This document shows positions 10,913 to 25,930 of a stretch of DNA of 26,100 bases, one piece after another. The stretch covers positions 1-26,100 of the forward strand of contig JBGTGT010000001.1 of assembly GCA_041746575.1 (NCBI GenBank). Direction: 5' to 3'. The notes beneath the pieces are model-generated. The model had not been told where the DNA came from and did not search any database. It saw only the letters and a list, made by a program, of their open reading frames with translations. The position numbers and the translations under genes were made by a program. Source of the stretch: Microcystaceae cyanobacterium (lineage in GTDB: Bacteria; Cyanobacteriota; Cyanobacteriia; Cyanobacteriales; Microcystaceae). Each line of letters begins with the position of its first letter. Position 1 is the first letter of the stretch.

Positions 10913-12121
10913 ATGATGACTACTAGATACTCATCTCCTAATCCTATCCCGATTCGGGAATTTACGGCTTCCAAGCAGGCTGGATTCTTTGACAAGCTTA
11001 AACAACCTCGGTTTAGCGGTCAAGTAGTGCTGACCAATGCCGCCAGAGGTGAAACGTGGTTTTTTTATCTTTATTTGGGGCGAATTATGTATGCGACGGG
11101 AGGGAGCCATCCGATTCGTCGCTGGAGGCGAAACATTGCCCTGTATCTACCGCAAATTGCCCCTCATCTCCCCTCAATGCAGCAATTGGGACTCGCCAGC
11201 CTGAATTCCCAAGATATTCAGATGTGTTGGGAATATTACTTGCTTTGTCTATGGGTTGAACAACAAAAAATTACCAGAGAACAGGTTGCGCGCTTAATCC
11301 GTTCGACCTTAGTGGAGATTTTGTTTGATGTTACGCAAATCATGGAAGTTATCTGCGAATTAAAGCAAGAAAATTGTCTTGCCACCCGTTTAGTCTTAAT
11401 TGACGCCGAACAAATCATCGAAGAATCGCAAAAATTATGGCAAGGATGGCAAGGAGCAAAAATTGCCGATCGTTCCCCGAATTCCGCCCCTGTAATTCGA
11501 CAACCCGAACAACTGCAACAACGCACCTCTCCCCAAGTCTATCAAACCCTCGGTCAACTCTTGGATGGTCATCAAACCCTCAGGGATTTATCTGTGCGCA
11601 TGAAACGGGATGTTTTGGCAGTTACCAGTTCCCTTTTACCCTATATTCAAATGGGATTTGTGGAATTAGTGCCGATTGGGGATTTACCTTCTCCCGTCGC
11701 TTCTACACCCGTTGATAACATGGGAACACCGTCGGCGACTGTTGGCCCCTTAATCGCCTGTGTGGATGATAGTCCCATGATGTGTCAACGGATGGAACAG
11801 ATTCTGACCGAGGCTAATTACCAATTTATCGGTATTAATGACCCGATGCGAGCGATCGCCATTATTTTAGCCCGTAAACCAGAATTAATTTTCCTAGATT
11901 TGGTCATGCCGAACACGAATGGTTATGAAATTTGCGCCCAACTGCGGAAGATTAACTATTTTCGCCAGATTCCGATCGTGATTTTGACAGGGAATGATGG
12001 CATTATTGACCGCGTTAGAGCCAAAATGGTGGGATCAACCGACTATATCACTAAACCTGTCAATTCTGAGCTGGTTCTCAGTGTTATTCACAAGAACCTT
12101 AAACAAGAAACCCTTTTATAG
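10913..12121 (+). CDS. pixG: PatA-family response regulator (PATAN-like N-terminus plus REC), PixG/TaxP-like
   Basis: FSGQVVL...WFFYLYLGRIMYATGGSHPIRRWRR N-terminal domain; C-terminal REC (CVDDS, IFLDLVMP, ILTGNDG, DYITKP); first gene of the taxis operon. Symbol assigned from gene order. Confidence 0.8.
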   Translation: MMTTRYSSPNPIPIREFTASKQAGFFDKLKQPRFSGQVVLTNAARGETWFFYLYLGRIMYATGGSHPIRRWRRNIALYLPQIAPHLPSMQQLGLASLNSQDIQMCWEYYLLCLWVEQQKITREQVARLIRSTLVEILFDVTQIMEVICELKQENCLATRLVLIDAEQIIEESQKLWQGWQGAKIADRSPNSAPVIRQPEQLQQRTSPQVYQTLGQLLDGHQTLRDLSVRMKRDVLAVTSSLLPYIQMGFVELVPIGDLPSPVASTPVDNMGTPSATVGPLIACVDDSPMMCQRMEQILTEANYQFIGINDPMRAIAIILARKPELIFLDLVMPNTNGYEICAQLRKINYFRQIPIVILTGNDGIIDRVRAKMVGSTDYITKPVNSELVLSVIHKNLKQETLL

Positions 12122-12290
12122 CATTACAGCGCATTAATGCGTTTGACAATCTAACTAAATGTTTCAAACCCCGTCACAAGGGAAACTTTAATATCTACTC
12201 GATTGCGACCGTTAATTTTAAAGCCATTAAGGGCATCTTAAGAATAAGTCTTCTAATTTTATTTACGATCAACCTAATGAGGTGACGATT

Positions 12291-12656
12291 ATGGGTATTG
12301 CCCTAATCATTGAAGATTCTCGTACTGAACAAGAAATTATCACCCAGTTTCTCAAGATCGCAGGGTTTCAGGTCTCTATTGCCAGCAGTGGTGAAGAAGC
12401 TCTCGAAAAGCTCAGCCAAGCCCTACCTGATGTTATTGTCCTCGATGTGGTGTTACCGGGACGTAGCGGTTTTGAGATTTGCCGCCAACTTAAGGCAGAT
12501 CATAAAACCTGTCGCATTCCGATCTTAATTTGTTCAACTAAAGACAGCAAAATAGATAGATTTTGGGGCAAAAAACAGGGTGCTGATGCCTATATTCCTA
12601 AACCTATTGACCAAAATACCTTTATTAGCACTATTCAATCTCTTATTCAACTTTAA
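12291..12656 (+). CDS. pixH: CheY-like single-domain response regulator, PixH-like
   Basis: IIEDS...VLDVVLPGRSGFEICR...CSTK...WGKKQGADAYIPKP; GAGG precedes ATG 12291 (alternative GTG 12282). Confidence 0.82.
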   Translation: MGIALIIEDSRTEQEIITQFLKIAGFQVSIASSGEEALEKLSQALPDVIVLDVVLPGRSGFEICRQLKADHKTCRIPILICSTKDSKIDRFWGKKQGADAYIPKPIDQNTFISTIQSLIQL

Positions 12657-12797
12657 GAGGTTGGACTGACATTAGGTTGCCTTAGTTAGGAGTGGAAACG
12701 TCCGAATTATCTGTGGCTTGTTGCCTTGTTTTAACTTTTAACGTGCTTTTGTTCAACGACTGAGTGCTTGCTTTTATCTGAATTAAGGAGAAGAATT

Positions 12798-13340
12798 ATG
12801 GTGTTCTCTTCATCTTCTAGGCCTGAGGCCATTGTAGCCCCCTTGAGGCGGGATCATCAAGACCAAGAACAATTTTTACGCTTTTTTTTAATACCCGAGA
12901 CTTGGGCGATGTTACCCGTTTCCCAAGTGACGGAAGTGTTAACGCTACCCGTGAGTCAAGTGGTACCTATTCCCCAAATGCCGCATTGGGTGATGGGAGT
13001 TTATAACTGGCGGGGTGAAGTGTTGTGGATCATTGATCTGGGGCTATTATTGGGACTAAAGCCTCAAATTAGTATTTCCTCTACTTGTCGTGCCATTGTA
13101 TTGCATCCTACCCTTCATCACTCGGGGAAAATGAGAAGCAGAAGTCAAATGTTGGGACTTATTGTTAACAAAGTAGAAGATATTGAATGGTGCAACCCCG
13201 ATAAGATTCAATCTCCTCCTGCGTCTGCTATTACACCCGGTTTTGCCCCTTTTTTGCGGGGTTACTGGCTACAAGAAGACAATGAAATGTGGGTCGTTCT
13301 TGATGGAGAGTCTATTTTAGCCGCCATGCCAACTCAGTAA
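12798..13340 (+). CDS. pixI: CheW-like adaptor, PixI-like
   Basis: VTEVL...PIPQMPHWVMGVYNWRGEVLWIIDL...GLIVNKVEDI; AAGGAG at 12785-12790 precedes ATG 12798. Confidence 0.85.
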   Translation: MVFSSSSRPEAIVAPLRRDHQDQEQFLRFFLIPETWAMLPVSQVTEVLTLPVSQVVPIPQMPHWVMGVYNWRGEVLWIIDLGLLLGLKPQISISSTCRAIVLHPTLHHSGKMRSRSQMLGLIVNKVEDIEWCNPDKIQSPPASAITPGFAPFLRGYWLQEDNEMWVVLDGESILAAMPTQ

Positions 13341-13416
13341 ACCGTTAAAGGTAAACAAATTTTACAACTTTTCTTAATCTCGTTCTGAATATCCAAAATT
13401 TACCCCCCATACGATC

Positions 13417-16400
13417 ATGACTCAAATTTCTCCTAAACCCGACGCTTCTAACCACCGTAATTCTTTGCCCATTAGTGATGACTCGATTCTCTCTGAATCA
13501 ATCGACCATGAGTTATCTGGGCAGGATTGGCAGGAAAATGAATCCTTAATAGCAATAGAAACCGAATTAGAAGACGTAGAGGCGACAAAATCCTCAAAAG
13601 TAATAGAAAATACAGAATCTGTCCAAAGTAAAGACGATTCCTTTATTTTTCTTTCTTCTATGCCTGCCGCTTCCTCGGCAAGTCTGCCCTTTGAGAAGTT
13701 GAAAATTTTACCCCCTAATGCCAACTTTAGCCCTCAACCGACCAAAACGACGGTTCAATCGTCCACCTTACGTCCTTCATCCCCTTGGCTACAAAAATGG
13801 CATAAATTAGGTCTGCAAAATAAAGTAGTAATGGCTTCTTTGTTAATTGGTTTAATTCCGGTTGTTTTAGTGGGAGCGGGAACGTTTTGGGGCGTTAGAA
13901 GTGTAGTTAATCAGCAGGTATCCAATGTCCTTAAATCAGAAATGAAAAGTCAGGTGAAGTCTTTAGATAATTTTTTACGAGATAGAGCGACAAATATTAA
14001 AATCTTAGCGGAAAGAGAAATTTTTAGCGACCCTAACGTCAGGAATCTCTTCTCAGCGCAAGATAAAAAGAATCAGTTGAATCAATATCGCCAAAATTAC
14101 CCTTATTTTAGTCAAATTGCAATAATTGGTGCAGATGGAACGGTCATAGCCATTTCAGGGACAGATTCCTTACCCAATCAGAAAAATACTGACTATTTTC
14201 AAGCAGTTAAGCAAAGTCAGCAACCTTTTATCCATCTCATCCCATCCCAAAAAGGAGGATACAGTTTAGAAATTGCGGTTCCTGTTCAAGATAACCAGAC
14301 TAAAGCGTTTTTAGGGGTAATTTCTGCCCGTATTCCCACCCTAGAACTCGATAAACACTTGGGTTACGAAATTGAGGAAACTGGAGAAGGAGAAAGCGAC
14401 TATTATTATTTATTAGACCAAAACAAAACGATTATTGCCTCTAATCATCGAGATGATCTCGGCAAAACGCTCGAAGCAGAATTTCCCCGTTTAGCCGCCC
14501 AATATAAGAAACAACCTACCCAAGATTTTTTGAAAACTGAAGAAAAGCACGGTCAATCCCGCAGTTTGATCAGTTATCGTCAAGCAAACCTCTTACCTGA
14601 ATCTGCCAATCTAGATTGGAAGTTAATTCTTGTTCGTCCGACGGATCAAGTGTATTCTGCCGCTCATACGCTTCTACGCAACTTAATTTTGGGGACAATT
14701 GCCACCTCTGCTCTGATTTTAACAGCCGCCCTGTTAGTCGCTAAACCCTTAACTCGTCCCATTCGGCGCATTGCTCAGGCGGTACAGAAAATGGGCGAAG
14801 GGAATTTAGATGTGAAATTAGAGGACTTAGGAGAGGATGAATTAGGGATATTAGGAGCTAATATTAACCGCATGGCGCACCAGCTTAAAGATTTAATCCA
14901 AGAACAAACCCTTTCCCTTGAAAAATCCAAATTATTAGCCGATATTGCTAATTGTCTCAATGTTGAACAGGACAATCATGACACCCTTTTTCAAACGACG
15001 TTAAAACAAGTTCGGATGCTTTTGAAACTGGATCGGATTCTTATTTATCGTTTTGAAGAAAATTTAAGCGGTCATGTCGCTTATGAATCGGTTTTAGACA
15101 ACTATAGCAGTGCTTTATCTGAGCAGTTCAGTGAAGTTTGCATTTCCAGTGCTTTCCTAGATGCTTACAAGACCGGGCGTGAAGTTATCAAAAGTGATGA
15201 CTTCAGCGAATCCTTAAGCCCCGAACACATAAACTTAATGGAACGTTTACAGGTACGGGGTCAAGCGATTATCCCCTTATTAAAGGAAGGATCGCTGTAT
15301 GGCTTATTAATTGCCCATCATTGCGCCAAACCCTATGAATGGCCAGCTTCTGAAGTCAATTTCTTGAAACAACTCGCTGAACAATTGAGTTTGACCTTAG
15401 ATCGAATCAGTTTACAACAACAACGACGGGAAGATGCTAAACGCGCTGGTTATCTCAAAGATATTACCTTAGCCATTGCGGCGGCCTTAAATACCAAAGA
15501 AGTCTTTACCGTAGCCGTCGAAGAGGTGCGTCGGATATTAAATAGCGATCGCGTGATTGTCTATCAGTTTAACCCCGATTGGTCGGGGACAATCATTGCA
15601 GAAGCGGTTTTACCCCAATTTCCCAAAGCATTAGGTGCCAATATTGCTGATCCTTGTTTTGCCGATCAATACGTCGAAAGATACCGTCAAGGTCGGGTTC
15701 AAGCGACATCTGATATTTACAAAGCGGGCTTAACAAAGTGCCATCTTCAGCAATTAGAACCTTTTGAGGTAAAAGCCAATTTAGTGGCCCCAATTGTTGA
15801 GGAAGGTCAATTATTAGGCTTATTTATTGCTCATCAGTGTTCCGCTCTCCGTCAATGGCAGCAGGGAGAAATCGACTTCTTCGCCCAAGTATCAACCCAA
15901 GTGGGGTTAGCCTTAGAACGGGCAGATTTAATTGAAAAACAACGAAAAGCAGAAGAAGAACAGCGAAATGAAAAAGAAAAGCTACAAAAACGAGCTTTAG
16001 AATTATTAATGGAAGTTGATCCCGTATCTCGTGGGGATTTAACCATTCGCGCCCATGTGACCGAAGATGAAATCGGCACTATTGCGGACTCCTATAATGC
16101 AACCATTGAAAACTTAAGACGCATTGTAACCCAAGTTCAATTAGCCACCGGACAGTTAGCCGATACCACCACTGGTAATGAAGTGGCAGTGCGTAACCTC
16201 TCAGAGGAAGCCAAACATCAAGCAATAGACATTGCTCAAGCCTTAGAACGGATTCAACAGATGACCAATACCATGCAGGAAGTGGCGATCAATGCCGAAC
16301 AAGCAGAAGCGGCAGTACAACAAGCTACCCAAACCGTGGAAACAGGGGAAGATGCCATGAATCGTACCGTAGATGGCATTATGGCCATTCGAGAAACGGT

Positions 16401-16968
16401 GGCAGAAACCGCCAAAAAAGTAAAACGATTGGGGGAATCGTCACAAAAAATCTCAAAAGTGGTTAACTTAATTAGCAGTTTCGCCGATCAGACCAACTTA
16501 CTGGCGTTAAATGCTTCGATTGAAGCCGCCCACGCAGGAGAAGAAGGACGAGGATTTGCTGTGGTGGCCGATGAAGTGCGATCGCTTGCCCGTCAGTCTG
16601 CTGAAGCAACGGCTGAAATTGAAACCCTCGTTGCCAGTATTCAATCAGAAACCAACGATGTGGTCGCCGCTATGGAATCAGGGACAGAACAAGTGGTCGT
16701 GGGGACAAGATTAGTAGATGAAACTCGCAAGAGTTTGAACCAAATTACCGCCACCAGTATTCAAATTAGTGAATTAGTCGCTGCGATCGCTGCTACTGCG
16801 GTTCGACAGGCGGATACCAGTCAAGAAGTTACCCAAACGATGTCACAAGTGGCTGCTATCTCCAATAAAACCTCTAGTGAAGCGGCGCAAGTCTCCGAAT
16901 CGTTCCGTCAACTACTGGCGGTTGCCCAAACACTACAGGAAAGTGTACGGCAGTTCAAAGTTCAGTAA
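13417..16968 (+). CDS. pixJ1: Methyl-accepting photoreceptor: TM-dCache-like-TM-HAMP-GAF-GAF(DXCF cyanobacteriochrome)-MA, PixJ1-like
   Basis: Two TM segments flank a periplasmic domain; HAMP ([18 protein letters not shown]...DELGILG); GAF2 has DPCF (C747) and CH (C775); signalling tip [34 protein letters not shown]. Confidence 0.88.
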
Positions 16969-17037
16969 TTCTGTAAAAGGTTTGACGTTAAATACTCAAC
17001 TCCTGATTCTTGATTCCCACTCTATCCTTATCCAATC

Positions 17038-17631
17038 ATGAAAGCCGTATCTTTACTTAAACCCCTTGCCCTTGTAACCACCTTCCTTGTGGTGTCTTGT
17101 AATGGGATGAATGGGAATCCATCCGCCCGTCATGAGATTGCTCCTGAATCGATGACGGATTACATTTATGAGATTCTAAAAGCCGAACGTTCTGTCTATG
17201 ACACACAAGTCGTACAGCGATTAAAAGAAGACGGGGTGGTCTTTGCTTCAGAAAACTGGCAACAGGAAAAAGCCTTGCTGCTTCCTGCCCAAATGTTCCG
17301 AATGACTGCCCAAGAAGCCTCAAAAAGCGGAGCGTTTAATTATCGTTCGATTTCACCGTGGAATCTTAATGAAGGCAATGCCCCTCGAACGGAAGTTGAG
17401 AAGCAAGCGATGCAGCAAGTGATTGAGACGGGGTTAGCGGTGAAGAAAACTCAAACCATTGCTGGGAAAAAGTATTTTTCTGCTGTTTATCCTGATAAAG
17501 CGACAACCGCCGCCTGTGTCGAGTGTCATAACAATCATCCTATCCATAAGCAACGCTATCCCGACAAAGTGTTCAAACTAGGCGATGTCATGGGAGGAAT
17601 TCTCGTTAATTTGCCCTTAAAACCGTCTTAA
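17038..17631 (+). CDS. Lipoprotein with c-type heme motif, Tll0287-like/DUF3365 domain
   Basis: Signal peptide with lipobox VVS-C21; LPAQMFR, YRSISPWNLNEGNAP, CVECH (C160/C163/H164) and FKLGDVMGGI match the DUF3365 pattern (PA...S..P.N..N.P...CxxCH...GD..G). Confidence 0.85.
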   Translation: MKAVSLLKPLALVTTFLVVSCNGMNGNPSARHEIAPESMTDYIYEILKAERSVYDTQVVQRLKEDGVVFASENWQQEKALLLPAQMFRMTAQEASKSGAFNYRSISPWNLNEGNAPRTEVEKQAMQQVIETGLAVKKTQTIAGKKYFSAVYPDKATTAACVECHNNHPIHKQRYPDKVFKLGDVMGGILVNLPLKPS

Positions 17632-17694
17632 CAGTTAATAGATCACAAAGAAATCACTTTTCAATCTCCAATCTCCTATTTTGCCTGAAAAGCC

Positions 17695-20600
17695 ATGAAA
17701 ACCTCTTCTCGCCCCCCTATTACCTCGTCATCCCCATTGATCATGATACCTTCTTCAGTGGCGATGTCCCACCCTCAATCTCATCCGAACTCGCCCCAGA
17801 GAAATGTTTTAGCTTGGTTATCGAATTTATCCATTAGAGATCGAACGTTGCTGATTCCCGTATTGATCTTTTTATCCTCTTTGGGAATTTTAGGGATTGG
17901 ACAAACGGCACTGAATCGAAGCTTACGGGAGCAATTAAAAAGTCAAACCCAATCTCAATTAGCGGTTACCCAAATTAACTATCAAAAAGACATTGAGGTA
18001 ATGAAGGCGAGCTTTATGAGTTTGTCAGAAAACCCGTTAATAATTGAAAAAGTCACGAATTATGTTAACGGTCAAGCTTTATCGGCTGAAGAGGTGCAAC
18101 AGTTAAAGGTTATGTTGCAAAGCATGGGCAATTTAGATTATGCGGTTTTGGTGGGTAAAAATAAACAGGTGTTAGCGGAGGCGCACAATCGTCTTCAAAT
18201 CGGGAGTCAATTCGATCCCAATGGACTAGTTTCTCAAACATTACAAGTAAAAACCCAGAAAGAAAGTAGTGAAACCCTAAAAAAACAAGATAAAAACACC
18301 CTTATTCGTTATACCGCCACGCCAATTAAACGCCCTCGAACTCAGACTGTCATCGGTGTCTTAGTATCGGGTAAAATTGTTGATTCCAGTATTGTCCGAA
18401 ATACCTTAAATACTTTCGGCAATCAAGGCTATGCAGGAATTTATCTTTATCAAGAAAAGGGAGAGAATCCCCTAGTAACGTCAGTTAATATCGACCAAAC
18501 TCGGAAAGAACAGCAGGATTTGCCCCTAGAAGATACCAATATTCTTAAAGAAGCAATTAAAGCTAGAGGAAATACCGTTTTTGATCGCCAAACCCTAGAC
18601 AATCGAACGTATACCTTAGCGAGTAAGAGCTTTACAAATTATCAAGGAGAACCGGTCGGTATATTTGTCTATGGTGACCCAGAAATTGCTTTAAATAAGA
18701 TTATTGAGGATAGTTTAAAGTGGCCGCTGATTCTCTCTTTAGCAGGTTTAGCAACCGTCGGCGGTTTATCGGCAATTATTGGTTATTCGATCGCCAATCC
18801 CTTAAAACGTTTACAAAAAGTGACCCAAGCATTTGCTCAGGGCAATTATAATGTGCGTTCTCCTATCCATTCTCATGATGAAATTGGTGAATTGTCTCAC
18901 TATTTTAATAAAATGGCTGATAATATTGCCAAAAATGACCGTCTGATTCGACAAGAAACGGAAATGTTTCGCTTTTTATCTCAAACCACCTCACCAGAGA
19001 ACTTAAAGCCTGAAACTTTGAATGAGTTATTTGAGCGTAGTGTACAAGAATCCCGACGTTTACTGGATATTGAGAACGTTTCGATTATAGAGGCGACTGG
19101 TCGCATCATTGCCAGTGATTCTTCGAACCAAAACCTTAATAACCTGCAAAAAGCACTTGAAACCGACTTAATCTTACAACTGCCGATTATCAATCAAGGG
19201 GAATTATTCGGCTATTTAATCGCTGAACAAGGAGAAAACAATCGAGAATGGCAAGAAACCGATGTAAGCTTCCTCGGACAACTGGTCATCCAATTAGAAA
19301 TTACCCTAGATCGGCTCAGTTTACGGCGACAACGGAACTTAGATGCCCGTTTATCCCTAATGCTAAAGGAAATTACTTTAAAAATTGCCAAAGCCTTCAG
19401 TGTGGAAACGCTGTTTGACGTGGTGGTAGAAAATACTCGACTGGCGTTAGATTGCGATCGCATTATTGTCTATGCTTTTGATGAAACATGGCAAGGAACG
19501 ATTGTGGCAGAAGGGTTAAATTCGGTGTTTCCTCCAGCTTTAGGGGCGCAAATTAAAGATCCTTGCTTTGCAAAGCAGTATGTTGATCAATATCGTCAAG
19601 GACGGGTCAAAGCCCTCAATGATATCAGTATAGCGGGATTAACCGATTGTCATCTTAATCAACTCGCTCCCTTTGCGGTGAAAGCCAATCTTGTCGCTCC
19701 GATTTTGGTAGCCGGTGAATTATTCGGACTTTTGATTGCTCACCATTGTAAAGCCCCCCATGCTTGGCAACAGCCCGAAATTGACTTTTTTACCCAAGTT
19801 GCTCTACAGGTTGGGGTCGCTTTAGAACGGGCGAATTTACTGGATCAGCAAACTTCAGCAGAAGAAGAACAACGTAAAGCGAAAGAATTACTGCAAAGGC
19901 GCGCCCTTGACCTTTTAATGGAGGTTGATCCCGTTAATAAAGGCGATTTAACGGTTTGCGCCCATGTAACTGAGGATGAAATTGGCACCATTGCTGATTC
20001 TTATAATGCGACGATTGAAAACCTGCGTCGTCTCGTTGTTAGTGTGCAATCTGCGGCGGAACAATTATCTGAGACCACTCAAAGTAATGAAATGACTGTA
20101 CAAATCTTATCAGAAGACGCATTACAGCAAGTAAAACAAATTTCTGGCTCATTAGAACAAGTCAATTATCTGATGGAATCTATTCAAGGTGTAACCCTAA
20201 ATGCGCAACAAGCGTTACAAGTCGTACAAGCTTCCACTCAAACGATTATGACTGGGGAAGCCGCCATGACAGAAACCGTCTCGGGAATGTTGACGATTCG
20301 GAATACAGTGACAGAAACCATGAAAAAAATTAAACATTTAGGAGAATCTTCGCAAAAAATATCGAAAGTAGTTAACTTAATTGGTCGTTTTGCCGCTCAA
20401 ACTCATTTACTTGCCTTGAAAGCGTCTATTGAAGCGGCGCGGGCAGGAGAAGACGGTCGCGGTTTTGCAGTAATTGCCAATGAAGTCCGAACCTTAGCCT
20501 CCCAATCTGCCCAAGCAACAGCAGAAATTGAAAGCTTAGTGACGAGTATTCAAGCAGAAACCAAAGAAGTAGCGGCAACAATGGCAAGTGGCACAAATCA

Positions 20601-20877
20601 GGTTATTATGGGCGGTCAACTTGTCGAAAAAACCCGACATAATTTACAGGAAATTGTGATGGCGAGTTCTCAAATTCAGGATTTAGTCAAGGCGATCACC
20701 GTTGCAACAACAGAGCAATCTCAAGCCAGCGAATCTGTCACGCAAGTCATGACTGAAGTGGTTCAAAGTGCCGCAAAATCCGCTCAATCTGCAACTTCTG
20801 TGGTGCAATCTTTCGATAAACTATTAATGCTTTCTAAAAAGCTACAACAGAACGTCGGCCAATTCAAAGTTCAGTAA
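17695..20877 (+). CDS. pixJ2: Second methyl-accepting receptor: TM-Cache-like-TM-HAMP-truncated GAF-GAF(DXCF)-MA, PixJ2-like
   Basis: Two TMs; HAMP (PLKRLQKVTQAFAQGNY...DEIGELS); GAF with DPCF (C624) and CH (C652); variant tip QTHLLALKASIEAARAGEDGRGF. Start could be 17695, 17743 or 17764. Confidence 0.8.
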   Translation: MKTSSRPPITSSSPLIMIPSSVAMSHPQSHPNSPQRNVLAWLSNLSIRDRTLLIPVLIFLSSLGILGIGQTALNRSLREQLKSQTQSQLAVTQINYQKDIEVMKASFMSLSENPLIIEKVTNYVNGQALSAEEVQQLKVMLQSMGNLDYAVLVGKNKQVLAEAHNRLQIGSQFDPNGLVSQTLQVKTQKESSETLKKQDKNTLIRYTATPIKRPRTQTVIGVLVSGKIVDSSIVRNTLNTFGNQGYAGIYLYQEKGENPLVTSVNIDQTRKEQQDLPLEDTNILKEAIKARGNTVFDRQTLDNRTYTLASKSFTNYQGEPVGIFVYGDPEIALNKIIEDSLKWPLILSLAGLATVGGLSAIIGYSIANPLKRLQKVTQAFAQGNYNVRSPIHSHDEIGELSHYFNKMADNIAKNDRLIRQETEMFRFLSQTTSPENLKPETLNELFERSVQESRRLLDIENVSIIEATGRIIASDSSNQNLNNLQKALETDLILQLPIINQGELFGYLIAEQGENNREWQETDVSFLGQLVIQLEITLDRLSLRRQRNLDARLSLMLKEITLKIAKAFSVETLFDVVVENTRLALDCDRIIVYAFDETWQGTIVAEGLNSVFPPALGAQIKDPCFAKQYVDQYRQGRVKALNDISIAGLTDCHLNQLAPFAVKANLVAPILVAGELFGLLIAHHCKAPHAWQQPEIDFFTQVALQVGVALERANLLDQQTSAEEEQRKAKELLQRRALDLLMEVDPVNKGDLTVCAHVTEDEIGTIADSYNATIENLRRLVVSVQSAAEQLSETTQSNEMTVQILSEDALQQVKQISGSLEQVNYLMESIQGVTLNAQQALQVVQASTQTIMTGEAAMTETVSGMLTIRNTVTETMKKIKHLGESSQKISKVVNLIGRFAAQTHLLALKASIEAARAGEDGRGFAVIANEVRTLASQSAQATAEIESLVTSIQAETKEVAATMASGTNQVIMGGQLVEKTRHNLQEIVMASSQIQDLVKAITVATTEQSQASESVTQVMTEVVQSAAKSAQSATSVVQSFDKLLMLSKKLQQNVGQFKVQ

Positions 20878-20938
20878 TAAAGTCTGAGATTAAATCCTCG
20901 AACCTCCCCTTACGATTCCCTATTCTTCTTTTTGACCT

Positions 20939-23900
20939 ATGTTAAACCCTGAAATTCGAGATCGAGCCTATCAGTTTTTTATTGAAGAAGCCCCCGAATT
21001 ACTGCAAATTATCGAAACGGGGTTACTCACATTGCGAGAAGAACGCAGTAAACAAAAAGTACATGAAATTATGAGAGCGGCACACTCCATTAAGGGAGGG
21101 GCGGCTAGTGTAGAATTGGATACGATTAAGACCCTTGCCCACCGCTTAGAGGACATTGTTAAAGCTCTCTATGATGAATCAGTGGAAATTGACACTGAAT
21201 TTGAGAGTCTTCTCTTACAGGGATATGATTGCTTGAGAAATCCCCTTGAGACACAAATTAACACAGGATCTTATGATGGAAAAGCGGCGATCGCCACGGC
21301 TGAACCGATTTGGCAAAAAATCGAAGCCCATTTAGGGGATAGTTTAGCGCAAGCAGACCAATATATCCCATCTTCGGCAGATTTAGGGGTGGATATTGTT
21401 TCTTCTCTCTTCGAGGTGGACGTTACTCAAGGATTAGAACAACTAGCAATGGTAGCCACCCATTCCGATAATTACGACGTGATCACCGAGTTACGCACTC
21501 AGATGGAAGTCTTTAGCGGGTTTTCAGAAATGTTGGGTTTACCTGGATTTGGCGAAATTACACAAGCAACTTTAAAGGCGTTGGATGTTAGTCCCGATCA
21601 AGCTCCTTATATCTTACAATTAGCTTTAGTTGACCTGATTCAAGCCAGAGAACAGATATTAGAAAAAGGCGATCGCACAACAGGAGGGAAACCGTCGGCG
21701 GCTTTACTGGCTTTTGCTTCCACTGGATTAACGAATGAAGTGACGGTCGAAGAAACATGGAACGATACCAATGTTTTATCATTCGATAATTTATTTGAAG
21801 AAAACGTTGAACTTTTAGAAGATTCGGGTTGGCGAGAGATCGATACCTTAAGTTCCAACCAATTATCAGCAAGTGTTAATCGAATTGAAGAAAACAATAA
21901 TTCGGTTGACTCTTTTACTCCAGAAGAATCTCAAGAATTTATAGAACTCAATGAACAATTGGTAATCAATTTAGAAGAATCCTCTGCCACTACAGATATT
22001 GATAATCTTGAAGATATTTTTAGTCAAATTCCTGATCATAATTTAGAAGATATTTTTGGACAGATTTCGGACTTAGATCAGCGTAATGATTTCGCAATTT
22101 CTGATTCTGGATTTATGTCAGAGTTAACAGAAGAAAAGACCGACGATGTTGAAAGCTTAATCAATTCAGAAACGAATATTGAAGATATTTTTGCTCAATT
22201 ACCCAGTCAATTTACAGAGAAAGTAGAAACGTCCAATTCTGAATTGATGACAGAATTAACTGAAGCGGAAAGAGAAGAATTTGTTACCTCTGAAATGTCA
22301 GCTTCTTTGGCAGAAGTCTCCAGTCAATTCCCCCTAGAAAGTATTTCTTTAAATTCGGTTGCTCAACCGATAGAGCCTTTGGATTTGGCTCACGATAAAT
22401 CTGAAGCAACGAAACCCTTAACGTCAACTACTGATACCCCTTCTTTAGATGAAATCTTTGGTACATTAAATGATGCTTTAAACCTAGAGAATATCGAAAA
22501 AACACCCATTTTTGTGCCAGTAGAAAACGAGCTAGATTATCCCCTTGGTATAGAACCCGATTTGACAGAACTCATCAAAACAGAAACGGTCGTTAATGAT
22601 GATCCATTCATTCAAGAAGTGGAAAATATTTTTGATACACTTCCCCCTATTACTGAAGAAAAATATCAGCTATCTGTTCCTTCTAAAACATTTTCTGATC
22701 CTCCTGTTGAACCGCTTCATACCGTTTATAAATCTACCGCTTTTGTATCTTCAAAAAGCGTTAATCCATCTAAAACGACCCAACATAAAGATAATCAATC
22801 TAACTCAAAAATGATTCAGTCTGAGGGAGGAGCATTATCCATTAAAGTAGATTTTAATCGTCTCGAACGGATGAATAACTTAGTCGGCGAATTAGCCATT
22901 AATCGGAATAGCTTATCACTCCAAAACGAGCAAATGCAAGGGTCAGTGCGATCATTACTGGATCGCTTTAATCTGTTCCAAAATATGACTCGTAAATTGC
23001 AGGAATTATCGGATCAAATGTTGATTGCGCCGGAAAAACAAGATTCTTCTCAGGTAAATTTAACGGGTAAATCAGAACTGTTTCTTTTGAATACGGATTT
23101 TGATTCTTTGGAGATGGATACTTATAGTAATCTTTATGCTTTATTACAGAATTTACTAGAAGAAATGATTCGCTTAGAAGAGTCGGTCGATGATGTTGTT
23201 TTGTTTGCTCGAACCTCAAATCAAGTCCTTGAACAACAGCGACAAATGCTGACAAATTTAAGGGATGAATTGATGTGGGCGAGAATGTTACCACTGGGGG
23301 AAGTTCTAAATCGTTTTCCTCGAATTTTACGAGATTTATCTGCTAACTATCATAAACCTGTCCGCCTCAAATTAACGGGAACAGGTGTTCTAGTTGATAA
23401 GGCCGCCTTGGAAAAACTGTATGATCCTTTATTGCATTTATTACGCAACGCCTTCGATCATGGCATAGAACCCTCCGAGGATCGCCAAAAAGCTGGAAAA
23501 TCGGAAGAAGGCCATATTGAAATTCAGGCTTATCATCAAGGGAATCAAACCATTATTGAAATTAATGACGATGGTAGAGGATTAAATTTAGAGAAAATCC
23601 GCGAAAAAGCGAGCCAATCTGGCATATTTACACCGCAACAGATAGCATTGTTTTCTAGCGAAAAAATTAAAGACTTGATCTTTGAACCCGGTTTTTCTAC
23701 AGCAGTCAGTGTAAGTGAATTATCGGGGCGAGGGGTAGGATTAGATGTGGTGCGATCGCAGCTACAATCCTTAAAGGGAACGGTCAGTGTTACCTCTAAA
23801 GAAGGAAAAGGGACAACATTCATGCTCAAATTACCGTTAACTTTAGCGATTGCTAAGCTGTTGGTGTGTTTTGTTTCTTATGACGATAATTGTGATGTTT

Positions 23901-24781
23901 CGGTTGCGTTTCCCTCGGATACTATCGAAGAAATTATTGTGCCTCAAGATGATCAAATTAAAGTCTCGAATCATCAACGTTTTCTTTGTTGGCAACGGCA
24001 AATCATGCCAATTTATCCAATGAAGGATTTATTAAAATATAATTGTCCTTTGCCGAGTCTTTCCCGTAAAGATTTTAATACCGTGCCTAACCCTGAAGAT
24101 TGGGGGCTTCCGTTATTAATTTTACGTCAAGGACAGCAATTATATGCGCTTGAAGTGAGCCGTCTCGTTACAGAACAAGAATTAGTCATTAAACCCTTTG
24201 GCAGTATGATTTCTGCACCCCTTTATACGTATGGCTGTACGATTTTAGGGGATGGCACCTTGATTCCTGTGGTGAATGGGACGACTTTAATTGAACAATA
24301 CCTCAATCCAAACCTGAATCGGGCAATTTCTATAAATTCTTTGGAAATTGAAGCAATTGCTCCCGTTTTTACGTCTTCTGTTCCTCAAACACCCTTAATT
24401 TTGGTGGTAGATGACTCGGCGGCTTTACGTCGCACCTTAGCGTTAACCTTAGAAAAGGCCGGTTATCGAGTCTTACAAGCGCGAGATGGACGGGATGCGC
24501 TGGATCAATTACAACGAACAGTCGGAATTGCTATGGTGATTTGTGACATAGAAATGCCGAATATGAATGGATTCGAGTTTTTAGGGCAACGTCGTCGTGA
24601 TCTCGCTTTAATGAAAATTCCGGTAGCGATGTTAACCTCTCGTAGTAGCGATAAACATCAGCAATTAGCCATGACATTAGGGGCAAGTGCTTATTTTACC
24701 AAGCCCTATATTGAACAGCAATTCCTAACATCTGTGGCCAATATTATCGAGGAATCTATTGCTGTTAGCCGTAAATCATGA
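20939..24781 (+). CDS. pixL: CheA-like hybrid histidine kinase (Hpt, acidic linker, dimerisation, HATPase, CheW, REC), PixL-like
   Basis: Hpt MRAAHSIKGGAASV; HLLRNAFDHGIE, DDGRGL, IFEPGFST and SGRGVGLDVV boxes; CheW-like domain; REC (VVDDS, ICDIEMPNMNGFEFL, MLTSRS, YFTKP). Confidence 0.92.
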   Translation: MLNPEIRDRAYQFFIEEAPELLQIIETGLLTLREERSKQKVHEIMRAAHSIKGGAASVELDTIKTLAHRLEDIVKALYDESVEIDTEFESLLLQGYDCLRNPLETQINTGSYDGKAAIATAEPIWQKIEAHLGDSLAQADQYIPSSADLGVDIVSSLFEVDVTQGLEQLAMVATHSDNYDVITELRTQMEVFSGFSEMLGLPGFGEITQATLKALDVSPDQAPYILQLALVDLIQAREQILEKGDRTTGGKPSAALLAFASTGLTNEVTVEETWNDTNVLSFDNLFEENVELLEDSGWREIDTLSSNQLSASVNRIEENNNSVDSFTPEESQEFIELNEQLVINLEESSATTDIDNLEDIFSQIPDHNLEDIFGQISDLDQRNDFAISDSGFMSELTEEKTDDVESLINSETNIEDIFAQLPSQFTEKVETSNSELMTELTEAEREEFVTSEMSASLAEVSSQFPLESISLNSVAQPIEPLDLAHDKSEATKPLTSTTDTPSLDEIFGTLNDALNLENIEKTPIFVPVENELDYPLGIEPDLTELIKTETVVNDDPFIQEVENIFDTLPPITEEKYQLSVPSKTFSDPPVEPLHTVYKSTAFVSSKSVNPSKTTQHKDNQSNSKMIQSEGGALSIKVDFNRLERMNNLVGELAINRNSLSLQNEQMQGSVRSLLDRFNLFQNMTRKLQELSDQMLIAPEKQDSSQVNLTGKSELFLLNTDFDSLEMDTYSNLYALLQNLLEEMIRLEESVDDVVLFARTSNQVLEQQRQMLTNLRDELMWARMLPLGEVLNRFPRILRDLSANYHKPVRLKLTGTGVLVDKAALEKLYDPLLHLLRNAFDHGIEPSEDRQKAGKSEEGHIEIQAYHQGNQTIIEINDDGRGLNLEKIREKASQSGIFTPQQIALFSSEKIKDLIFEPGFSTAVSVSELSGRGVGLDVVRSQLQSLKGTVSVTSKEGKGTTFMLKLPLTLAIAKLLVCFVSYDDNCDVSVAFPSDTIEEIIVPQDDQIKVSNHQRFLCWQRQIMPIYPMKDLLKYNCPLPSLSRKDFNTVPNPEDWGLPLLILRQGQQLYALEVSRLVTEQELVIKPFGSMISAPLYTYGCTILGDGTLIPVVNGTTLIEQYLNPNLNRAISINSLEIEAIAPVFTSSVPQTPLILVVDDSAALRRTLALTLEKAGYRVLQARDGRDALDQLQRTVGIAMVICDIEMPNMNGFEFLGQRRRDLALMKIPVAMLTSRSSDKHQQLAMTLGASAYFTKPYIEQQFLTSVANIIEESIAVSRKS

Positions 24782-24836
24782 TCCAGTAATCAGTAATATT
24801 TATTCTAGTTCCTAATTTTCTATTTCTATACTTAAG

Positions 24837-25346
24837 ATGCTTGACAATCCTTCTCTTTATGACTCAATGTTAGCTGACGTGGTGACGGCAGACAAGACCG
24901 TTAAACTGCTTATTTTTAAAGTGGGTAAGTTAACAGTAGCTTTATCTGTTGATTTTGTGCAAAAAATTCTCAAAAAAATGAAAATTTATGGTAGTGGCAC
25001 CACAGAAATGGGAATCGCCCATATTAATAATCAAGAGATCACGGTGATTGACTTACACAAACGCTTATTTAAAATAAGTCAACCGCTCAATCAACAGGCT
25101 AATTCTTTCTTGATTTTGGCCAAAAATACAATTGATGAAGTCTTTGGTATATTAGTAACAGAAACCCCAAGTTTAAGCGATTTACCTTTATCTCAAATCC
25201 GAGTTTTACCTGACTCTTACCGTCGAGGAGATACTTTGGAAATTGCAACCCATGTCACAAGAATTGAAGAAAAAGGAGAATTAGTGACAGTGTTTATTTT
25301 AGATGTTGATAAATTGATAGTCCCTACAAAACAGTGGAGGTTGTGA
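24837..25346 (+). CDS. cheW: Second CheW-like protein
   Basis: LLIFKVGKLTVAL...VQKIL...GIAHINNQEITVIDL...FGILV...FILDVDKL; last gene of the operon. The final ~9 codons appear IS-derived. Confidence 0.8.
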   Translation: MLDNPSLYDSMLADVVTADKTVKLLIFKVGKLTVALSVDFVQKILKKMKIYGSGTTEMGIAHINNQEITVIDLHKRLFKISQPLNQQANSFLILAKNTIDEVFGILVTETPSLSDLPLSQIRVLPDSYRRGDTLEIATHVTRIEEKGELVTVFILDVDKLIVPTKQWRL

Positions 25347-25930
25347 ATTGATAAGCTTTTTCGGGAATCGGAGCCAGAATCAAATCACGCCATGTCAGTT
25401 GAGTTGTAGTTAGTCCCATTTTCATTCCTGGGGTTTGATCTTAATAGCGTTTCTGGAATTTTTTGGGCGTTTCGTTGACTTCAATCCGAAGGCTTTTGTG
25501 AAATTGGCGGTAATTGTAGTTGAAATTATTAATCCACATCACCCATTTAAAATTCGTGCGATTTTTACAGTAGCCTAAAGTCTTTCGTTGAAGATAAGAG
25601 ACTCGTTGACGCAGAGTTAGGTTAAATCGCTCAATATAAGAAGTATTTTGGGTAAGATTTGGAAAATCCTCTTGTTTTCCTTTAACAACTCTTTGCTTAA
25701 CCTTAATTAATCGACGTTTGCGTCTTTGCTTAACAATTTGGAGATAGGCATAGAGCAATTGCCCGTTCATAAGCCGTCAATTGATCAGTGGTAATCAACA
25801 AAAACTCCGTAAATCCCCAAGGCATCAGGTAAACCAGGCTAGAGAGCAAACGATTAGCTGTCCATCTGGTGCGACTTCCTAATTCAAAATTGACCCAAAA
25901 CTTAGTTCGGACTTCTAAAGTGATGAAGAG
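25316..25930 (-). pseudogene. Decayed IS1-family transposase/element
   Basis: Minus strand reads LFITLEVRTKFW...GSRT...ITTDQLTAYERAIA, frameshifts near 25755 into YLQIVKQ...NTSYIERFNLTLRQRVSYLQRKTLGYCK...YNY, hits an in-frame TAA at 25441-25443, then continues DQTPGMKMGLT...TWRDLI...TVL* to 25324. Confidence 0.85.

Follow-up and report, generated by a model that had tools for sequence, protein, structure and literature searches.

We analysed a 26,100-nucleotide stretch of a Microcystaceae cyanobacterium genome (assembly GCA_041746575.1, contig JBGTGT010000001.1, positions 1 to 26,100; hereafter the window), in which a gene for a small lipoprotein predicted to carry haem c, here called HAEM, lies between two genes for methyl-accepting chemotaxis proteins (MCP1 and MCP2). 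Eight co-oriented genes span 10913-25346, HAEM being the fifth; all are assigned by their Pfam domains, and our comparisons support its being an integral, conserved part of this taxis operon, not a strain-specific one. The arrangement is a conserved feature and more than a coincidence of neighbourhood, and the haem genes found in it trace to a single origin. We put at about even the chance that, in a single recruitment, a haem protein of electron transfer became an extracytoplasmic accessory of the taxis receptors and gives them a redox or ligand input, most likely via MCP2. An earlier note on this DNA had described a 197-residue lipoprotein gene with a lipobox cysteine at residue 21 and one CVECH motif, set between co-oriented MCP genes at gaps of 69 and 63 bp with no obvious terminator, and all of this is present as described. 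Both gaps fall within the range of the operon's gaps (55-160 bp), and a consensus scan at chance level overall (15 terminator-like sites where 14.4 were expected, and 28 promoter-like ones where 31.6 were) placed no terminator-like or sigma-70-like site on their + strand.

The conservation of the arrangement was surveyed in 89 genomes of the window's family, Microcystaceae, the window's genome included. Close homologues of the haem gene (56-73% identity) occur in 18 genomes of seven genera besides the window's own, and an MCP2 orthologue lies directly downstream in every one of these 18 related loci, at a distance of 28-204 bp with one case of 415 bp (minimum estimates, measured from the first in-frame start codon). 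MCP1 precedes the haem gene in 16 of the 18, the contig ending there in the other two, and the complete eight-gene order is visible in 11 loci. The neighbourhood survey that the earlier note had called for thus rules out an oddity of a single strain. A scan of the whole genome collection, in which a single-protein query returned no relative and an alignment query did, placed the pix arrangement in Crocosphaera spp., Cyanothece sp. BG0011, Cyanothece sp. UBA12306, Aphanothece hegewaldii CCALA 016 and Microcystaceae metagenome-assembled genomes; these loci overlap those of the family survey and are not counted twice.

Outside this group of loci, the haem gene keeps different company. A class-level sample of 400 other genomes yielded 60 full-length homologues (E <= 2.6e-47, 43-57% identity), whose neighbourhoods were compared over about 9 kb on each side; four weaker matches (E 6.6e-39 to 6.7e-11) were left out of this comparison. 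The pix context was seen in one of the 60 (L002, from the same family and another genus; L and G numbers are our labels for loci and genomes), one homologue stands among housekeeping genes (L007), and 58 share a different, strongly conserved and co-oriented neighbourhood, which is taken up below. A Xenococcaceae metagenome-assembled genome has three paralogues. In the first (L112), a gene for a 958-residue GAF-containing MCP lies 55 bp downstream of the haem gene, and the ectodomain of this MCP shares 40% identity with that of MCP2. The remainder of the pix operon is gone from this locus: upstream lie genes for RNase III and an oxidoreductase, a DDE transposase gene and the 3' end of a further MCP gene, and downstream lie DM13 and short-chain dehydrogenase/reductase genes. 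Because this pair has outlasted the break-up of its operon, the persisting unit is HAEM together with an MCP2-type receptor. The second copy (L115) is transcribed divergently from another taxis operon (PatA-like, CheY, CheW, MCP), 237 bp away, and adjoins a gene for a response regulator-SpoIIE phosphatase, and the third (L116) is of the multihaem-operon type described below.

Phylogeny gives these cases one source. With a tree rooted on 16 non-cyanobacterial homologues and support measured by the Shimodaira-Hasegawa-like approximate likelihood ratio test (SH-aLRT), the cyanobacterial sequences are monophyletic (support 100), and the 19 pix-type sequences form one clade both in the first tree (SH-aLRT 100) and in the rooted tree (99), which L112 and L115 join at support 75. 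The sister of this wider clade comprises 63 sequences, 62 from multihaem operons and L007 (support 98). The stem of the pix clade is long, at 0.89 in the first tree, as compared with 0.12 for the sister clade. One locus with a mere remnant of the haem gene (L080) was left out of trees and alignments, and one with a partial MCP2 (L074) was left out of the alignments of the haem protein and the MCP2 ectodomain.

The operon in which the sister sequences reside contains genes for a globin, two multihaem c3/c7-like cytochromes of 215 and 299 residues, the haem-binding single-Cache (sCache_heme) lipoprotein, a membrane protein of about 219 residues with a weak DUF4405 match, a thioredoxin and a 73-residue open reading frame (ORF), and it is adjoined by a ResB-like/CcsA-like pair and a Rieske protein. 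A literature search, limited to what was accessible, found no description of a cyanobacterial operon combining globin, multihaem cytochromes and sCache_heme. Non-cyanobacterial relatives (41-48% identity) belong to Nitrospirota, Polyangiaceae, Verrucomicrobiota, Acidobacteriota, gammaproteobacteria and other groups, and in 51 of their 56 loci a cytochrome of about 440 residues adjoins the sCache_heme gene; ten CXXCH motifs were counted in this cytochrome in each of three loci. In most cases the neighbourhood further includes a globin and a protein of about 650-720 residues, which in the one example scanned (L124) contains pyridine-nucleotide-disulphide oxidoreductase, rubredoxin-reductase-C and BFD-like [2Fe-2S] domains and has a C-terminal part resembling the membrane protein of the cyanobacterial operon. 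Because multihaem and cytochrome neighbourhoods recur both in cyanobacteria and in other phyla, the default setting of this haem-gene subfamily is an electron-transfer module, and the multi-phylum module supplies a conserved context for sCache_heme proteins that otherwise stand as orphans.

In the window's genome, tblastn (E <= 1e-5) detected none of the former partners that were queried, neither the multihaem cytochromes nor globin, membrane protein or ResB-like protein. Among the 89 family genomes, the multihaem protein of the sister operon was found in one, G435, the genome from which the query itself came, which has 8% contamination and both haem-gene types; it was not found in the remaining 87 beyond that genome and the window's. 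The pix-type haem gene is nevertheless under strong purifying selection, with a median pairwise ratio of nonsynonymous to synonymous substitution rates (dN/dS) of 0.091 over the 68 of 171 pairs that were usable; for comparison, the MCP2 and MCP1 ectodomains have medians of 0.148 and 0.202, respectively. Its reading frame is intact in all 18 genomes as far as the contigs reach, two being truncated by contig ends, and 59 columns are invariant in the alignment of 18 pix-type proteins, among them the CXXCH motif, the N-x-H-P-x-H that follows it and an L-P-A-Q-x-F-R-M motif.

The haem protein itself is a stand-alone member of the Tll0287-like family PF11845 (formerly DUF3365), a membership proposed in the earlier note and borne out by the Pfam hidden Markov model (score 76.9 bits where the cut-off is 24.1, E 2.8e-21, aligned over profile positions 12-144 of 144); no NCBIfam model matches it. 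Its signal peptide ends in LVVSC, the cysteine of which, Cys21, is that of the lipobox, and the protein has three cysteines in total (C21, C160 and C163). The latter two belong to CVECH, an instance of the canonical haem-c motif CXXCH, which is 99% conserved across the family according to a preprint (bioRxiv 10.64898/2026.02.01.703092). CXXCH is invariant in 18 of 18 pix-type sequences and kept in the multihaem-operon sister clade, and the lipobox cysteine is retained in 95% of pix-type and 100% of multihaem-operon sequences. The signal peptide and family motif together suggest a protein exported from the cytoplasm, to the periplasm or the thylakoid lumen, with haem c attached. An AlphaFold2 model built from 18 sequences had a mean predicted local distance difference test score (pLDDT) of 57.7, with residues 29-90 below 50, and was too poor for a fold search or for reading the sixth haem ligand. 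The window's genome, which is 99.78% complete, has a single PF11845 gene.

The same preprint reclassifies DUF3365/Tll0287 as sCache_heme and separates a stand-alone Cluster 1 from a fused Cluster 2 (bioRxiv 10.64898/2026.02.01.703092). Cluster 1 is there marked at position 95 by Asn or Ser and at positions 44 and 48 by hydrophobic residues, and Cluster 2 by a basic residue at 85 and an acidic one at 101. The window's protein is distant from Tll0287 itself (PDB 5b82; phmmer E 0.013 over residues 90-193). If the numbering is as in 5b82, an assumption supported by the Asn at 95 and the hydrophobic residues at 44 and 48 of Tll0287, then the invariant Asn111 of the haem protein aligns with position 95, while its N-terminal region aligns unreliably at positions 44 and 48. 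The Cluster 2 positions 85 and 101 correspond under the same assumption to Asn101 and Arg117 (Ser and Asn in the pix-clade consensus), which are not a basic/acidic pair, and the protein lacks the fusion to transmembrane, HAMP or output domains that goes with that cluster. By these signature positions it would resemble the redox-like, stand-alone Cluster 1 more than the fused, nitric oxide (NO)-binding Cluster 2.

Tll0287 has a distal Cys ligand, as summarized in the preprint (bioRxiv 10.64898/2026.02.01.703092). The haem protein has no counterpart of it: the cysteine of a 191-residue Tll0287-type protein (L084) aligns with Pro83, and because there is no cysteine beyond those of the lipobox and CXXCH, Cys/His haem ligation is excluded. 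Met86, His167 and His170, conserved in the pix and multihaem clades, are candidate sixth ligands. The earlier note had offered O2, NO, CO, sulfide or redox state as the signal; the Cluster 1 Asn favours the redox part of that list, and gas sensing is less supported, as the Cluster 2 pair is not there. It had also held that such haem domains are usually fused to kinases or MCPs, which does not agree with the preprint, where about half of the sCache_heme family is stand-alone.

Several other forms of the family were seen in the same cyanobacteria. PF11845 was found in 262 of 401 genomes of the class. One genome with a pix-type gene (G249) also encodes a 306-residue sCache_heme protein with a HAMP domain and no output domain (L081:1213-2133), the architecture of the Pseudomonas azotoformans Cache_heme-HAMP receptor; this was the one top-scoring match scanned, and most other top-scoring matches (E about 1e-44) lie in open frames of comparable length, about 300-330 residues. 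A sCache_heme-PAS fusion protein occurs as well.

If the haem protein has an MCP as its partner, this is most likely MCP2. The earlier note had left the choice at one of the two MCPs, and it can be narrowed because MCP1 lacks a periplasmic domain in two haem-bearing relatives, where two transmembrane helices enclose a loop of about 30 residues (L062:6127-8856 in G435, of the window's genus, and L063:6240-8906 in G437). MCP1 has a dCache domain of about 260 residues in the window and 13 other loci, and the dCache ectodomain of MCP2, of about 270-289 residues, is present in 17 of 17 complete loci. Orthologue-level matches (41-55% identity) to the N-terminal 420 residues of MCP2 were found only in genomes with the haem gene and in two more, G424 and G411. 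Two genomes of the family without a haem gene differ at this point: G131 has a pix cluster with a 939-residue MCP lacking dCache and a 212-residue MCP fragment, and G429 has two adjacent MCPs, the second with an unrelated N-terminus. The co-occurrences of haem gene and MCP2 all go back to a single origin and are suggestive rather than statistical evidence.

Two computational approaches to the pairing were uninformative. A complex prediction with the MCP2 ectodomain, the mature haem protein and a haem ligand scored 0.00 in both of two runs made with no controls and counts neither for nor against binding. For the co-evolution analysis proposed in the earlier note, residual distances of the haem protein were correlated, in a mirror-tree comparison, with those of each MCP ectodomain. 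The correlations were 0.86 for MCP1 and 0.65 for MCP2 when the window was included; without it, they fell to 0.08 and 0.12, values reached in 682 and 549 of 2000 permutations, respectively. We rejected this signal as the product of one fast lineage, that of the window.

The operon has the composition of a Pix/Tax1-type system (Table 1), namely a PatA-type response regulator, CheY, CheW, MCPs with GAF domains predicted to bind bilin and a hybrid CheA, all co-oriented, and the same order is found in 11 complete related loci. We apply the names pixG to pixL to its positions. Orthologues of the first gene (70-82% identity) head the same cluster in relatives. The earlier note had ascribed to both MCPs large Cache-like periplasmic domains and bilin-type GAF domains, and this description has held up. 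Both carry a dCache ectodomain, MCP1 by its Pfam match and MCP2 by its structure model. MCP2 has no Pfam Cache match; the model of its residues 73-341 has a pLDDT of 84.2, and its top Foldseek matches in the PDB are all dCache ligand-binding domains of chemoreceptors (E 1e-9 to 1e-6), the best being 9heh (E 1.2e-9), followed by TlpA, PctA, TlpQ, Mlp24 and Tlp3. One GAF domain in each MCP has the DPCF and Cys-His motifs expected of a DXCF cyanobacteriochrome and is closest to PDB entries 3vv4, 4fof and 2m7u, titled "methyl-accepting chemotaxis protein" (E 6e-47 for MCP1 and 6e-46 for MCP2). These entries we take to be TePixJ, a blue/green cyanobacteriochrome of the PixJ type, and from their sequences MCP1 and MCP2 are predicted to be PixJ-type blue/green (DXCF) cyanobacteriochrome MCPs.

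Table 1. Coordinates of the haem gene, the other features of its operon and examples of the related modules (positions in the window unless a locus is named)
Feature	Position	Strand	Basis or content
PatA/PixG-type response regulator, DUF4388 + REC, first operon gene	10913..12121	+	Pfam PF14332 + PF00072
CheY-like single-domain response regulator, PixH position	12282..12656	+	Pfam PF00072, 85.9 bits
CheW, PixI position	12768..13340	+	Pfam PF01584, 96.8 bits
MCP1, 1183 aa: dCache_1, two HAMP, two GAF, MCP signalling domain	13417..16968	+	Pfam
MCP1 dCache_1, aa 167-404	13915-14628	+	Pfam, 64 bits vs cut-off 45
MCP1 second GAF, aa 694-833, DPCF...CH	15496-15915	+	closest PDB 3vv4, E 6.3e-47
Gap between MCP1 and haem gene, 69 bp	16969..17037	+	ORF coordinates
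Haem gene HAEM, stand-alone sCache_heme (Tll0287-like/DUF3365) lipoprotein, 197 aa	17038..17631	+	PF11845, 76.9 bits
Haem-gene signal peptide and lipobox Cys21	17038-17100	+	translated sequence
Haem-gene CVECH, residues 160-164	17515-17529	+	translated sequence
Gap between haem gene and MCP2, 63 bp	17632..17694	+	ORF coordinates
MCP2, 1060 aa: dCache-fold ectodomain, HAMP, GAF, MCP signalling domain	17695..20877	+	Pfam and structure model
MCP2 predicted extracytoplasmic dCache-fold domain, aa 73-341	17911-18717	+	structure model, Foldseek
MCP2 GAF, aa 570-710, DPCF...CH	19402-19824	+	closest PDB 3vv4, E 6.2e-46
Hybrid CheA (Hpt, dimerisation, HATPase, CheW, REC), PixL position	20939..24781	+	Pfam
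Second CheW, last operon gene	24837..25346	+	Pfam PF01584; same position kept in relatives
Sister multihaem operon, example	L012:6612-11196		gene content and order; also L003-L061 except L007, L079, L116-L122
Non-cyanobacterial module, example	L124:2519-6973		neighbourhood genes; loci L123-L178

Three further features were noted. MCP1 begins with a cytoplasmic extension of about 130 residues before its first transmembrane helix (13417-13800), rich in Ser, Glu and Pro, without a family match and of variable length among relatives. Just past the operon, a 109-residue ORF on the - strand (25441-25770) resembles an IS1 transposase weakly (20.1 bits, where the cut-off is 24.1) and may be a transposase remnant marking the operon's end. 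Elsewhere in the same genome, outside the window, a second stretch resembling the N-terminus of MCP2 (G000:C43:4176-5424, 35-41% identity) is interrupted by one TAG and one TAA and is probably a broken MCP paralogue.

How might a haem protein have come to serve a phototaxis operon? In the scenario we propose, a cyanobacterial sCache_heme paralogue, with sister copies in a multihaem/globin electron-transfer operon, would have become fixed directly upstream of the MCP2 gene in the ancestor of part of the Microcystaceae. The redox or ligand state of the lipid-anchored haem c protein would follow conditions in the periplasm or outside the cell, such as redox poise, O2, sulfide or NO, and the protein would then alter its contact with the dCache domain of MCP2. 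The altered contact might bias the shared CheA/CheW array and hence the PatA/CheY output to type IV pili, such that light, through the cytoplasmic GAF domains, and redox conditions outside the cell would be integrated in one receptor array. Export and haem attachment, physical contact with MCP2, co-transcription and the nature of the signal are the steps that we infer. A more specific reading, close to the proposal of the earlier note, in which the stand-alone, lipid-anchored haem-c Cache protein is a detachable redox or gas co-receptor of a cyanobacteriochrome MCP and the pair integrates a chemical cue with light colour in steering type IV pilus motility, we regard as tentative and somewhat doubtful. 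The conserved pix-operon clade, the purifying selection, the survival of the pair in L112 and the failure to find the old partners all lend it support, and the dispensability of the gene in two lineages detracts from it.

That dispensability is one of several points that weigh against recruitment into taxis. The haem gene has been lost at least twice, independently and with MCP2 intact both times. In G424 (L088:10241-10330), intact MCP1 and MCP2 genes are 88 bp apart with no trace of the haem gene between them. In G411 (L080:9001-9156), an in-frame remnant joins the signal peptide and about 25 residues to the last 25 or so, without CXXCH, and adjoins a split MCP1 and an intact MCP2. Position within an operon can also persist by inheritance alone, and all pix-type cases are one event, not 19. 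The support of 75 for joining L112 and L115 to the pix clade is low, and the signature positions place the protein with the stand-alone, redox-like Cluster 1, without the signalling pair of Cluster 2.

An alternative, which we consider rather unlikely, is a periplasmic redox or electron-transfer (or detoxifying) haem protein that is merely co-expressed inside the operon and has no link to the MCPs. The sister clade and the non-cyanobacterial relatives sit in electron-transfer modules, in 58 of 60 cyanobacterial and 51 of 56 non-cyanobacterial loci, the signature Asn of Cluster 1 is present, and the losses in G424 and G411 left MCP2 in place. A stand-alone representative is redox-like, with a potential of 123 mV and weak NO binding, in the preprint (bioRxiv 10.64898/2026.02.01.703092). 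Yet its electron-transfer partners were not found in the window's genome or in the other 87 family genomes (the query source aside) and the gene is still kept at a dN/dS of 0.09, its adjacency to MCP2 outlasts the operon in L112, and the further copy L115 adjoins a different taxis operon. The haem might alternatively be beside the point, the protein serving as a Cache module that partners the MCP2 dCache domain, stabilises it or determines its location, or that anchors the array to the membrane or outer layers. A Cache-superfamily protein, as the preprint classes it (bioRxiv 10.64898/2026.02.01.703092), encoded beside a dCache receptor in a conserved gene pair and equipped with a lipid anchor would suit that role. 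We nonetheless think it improbable, given that CXXCH and N-x-H-P-x-H are invariant in 18 of 18 sequences, which argues that the haem site itself is under selection, and that MCP2 is intact where the haem gene is lost. Two losses within the clade might even point to a decaying or non-functional insertion, but the intact frames, the 59 invariant columns, the median dN/dS of 0.091 and the retention of signal peptide, lipobox and haem motif leave this reading very remote and close to refuted.

The reading of the haem protein as a co-receptor of a cyanobacteriochrome MCP would, if true, give the orphan, stand-alone half of the sCache_heme family its first signalling role, and it would be a case of an electron-transfer subunit turned sensor through a change of operon. 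The preprint states that stand-alone sCache_heme genes, unlike those of H-NOX and NosP, have no genetic association with signalling output proteins, for want of which their function is hard to approach (bioRxiv 10.64898/2026.02.01.703092). The pix-type clade is an exception to this statement and offers a testable case, with a gene that adjoins taxis receptor genes, or lies between two of them, in at least 19 genomes and a sister electron-transfer clade for comparison. We found no report of a haem gene in a pix or tax operon in a literature search that covered few subscription journals, and the supplementary datasets of the preprint might list such genes. For phototaxis, the arrangement points to a non-light input into an array of the PixJ type and suggests that the second MCP's large, unexplained ectodomain has a role to play. 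It may be relevant to positioning in mats, sediments and aggregates, where gradients of light, O2 and sulfide coincide.

The general logic, a stand-alone haem sensor beside an output protein or a chemoreceptor relying on a separate binding protein, is already known, and it is the variant seen here that is new. Tll0287 of Thermosynechococcus (5b82), the founding member of PF11845, is like the window's protein a stand-alone, exported c-type haem protein of about 190-200 residues with CXXCH near its C-terminus, from which the latter differs by its distance in sequence, the missing counterpart of the distal Cys ligand and its gene context. The window's protein shares its stand-alone form and signature Asn with Cluster 1 proteins such as that of Pseudomonas putida, as the preprint describes them, but its clade lies in a taxis operon in 19 genomes and lacks the cysteine discussed for the P. 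putida protein. The Cluster 2 fusions, among them the Geobacter MCPs GSU0582 and GSU0935 and the Cache_heme-HAMP NO receptor of P. azotoformans, likewise combine a haem-c Cache domain outside the cytoplasm with chemotaxis-type signalling. In contrast to these, the window's protein is unfused and without the basic/acidic pair, its coupling would run via a separate polypeptide, and the candidate receiving MCP has a predicted dCache domain and a putative cytoplasmic bilin sensor of its own.

With H-NOX and NosP, a comparison that the preprint also names (bioRxiv 10.64898/2026.02.01.703092), the window shares the principle of a separate haem protein encoded beside the signalling protein that it would modulate, and the corresponding adjacency, HAEM followed by MCP2, is present in 18 of 18 related loci and in L112. 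H-NOX and NosP, however, are cytoplasmic haem-b proteins that act on kinases and cyclases, whereas the protein described here is a predicted haem-c protein, lipid-anchored outside the cytoplasm and encoded beside an MCP. The pixGHIJ1J2L (tax1) operon of the Synechocystis type matches the window's operon in gene order and in the domains of its regulators, CheW, hybrid CheA and PixJ-type GAF MCPs. Within the window's own family, G131 has PixG, PixH, PixI and MCP genes followed by a short MCP and CheA, with no haem gene. The window differs from the Synechocystis-type operon in the haem gene between its MCPs and in a full-length MCP2 with a predicted dCache ectodomain and its own DXCF GAF domain.

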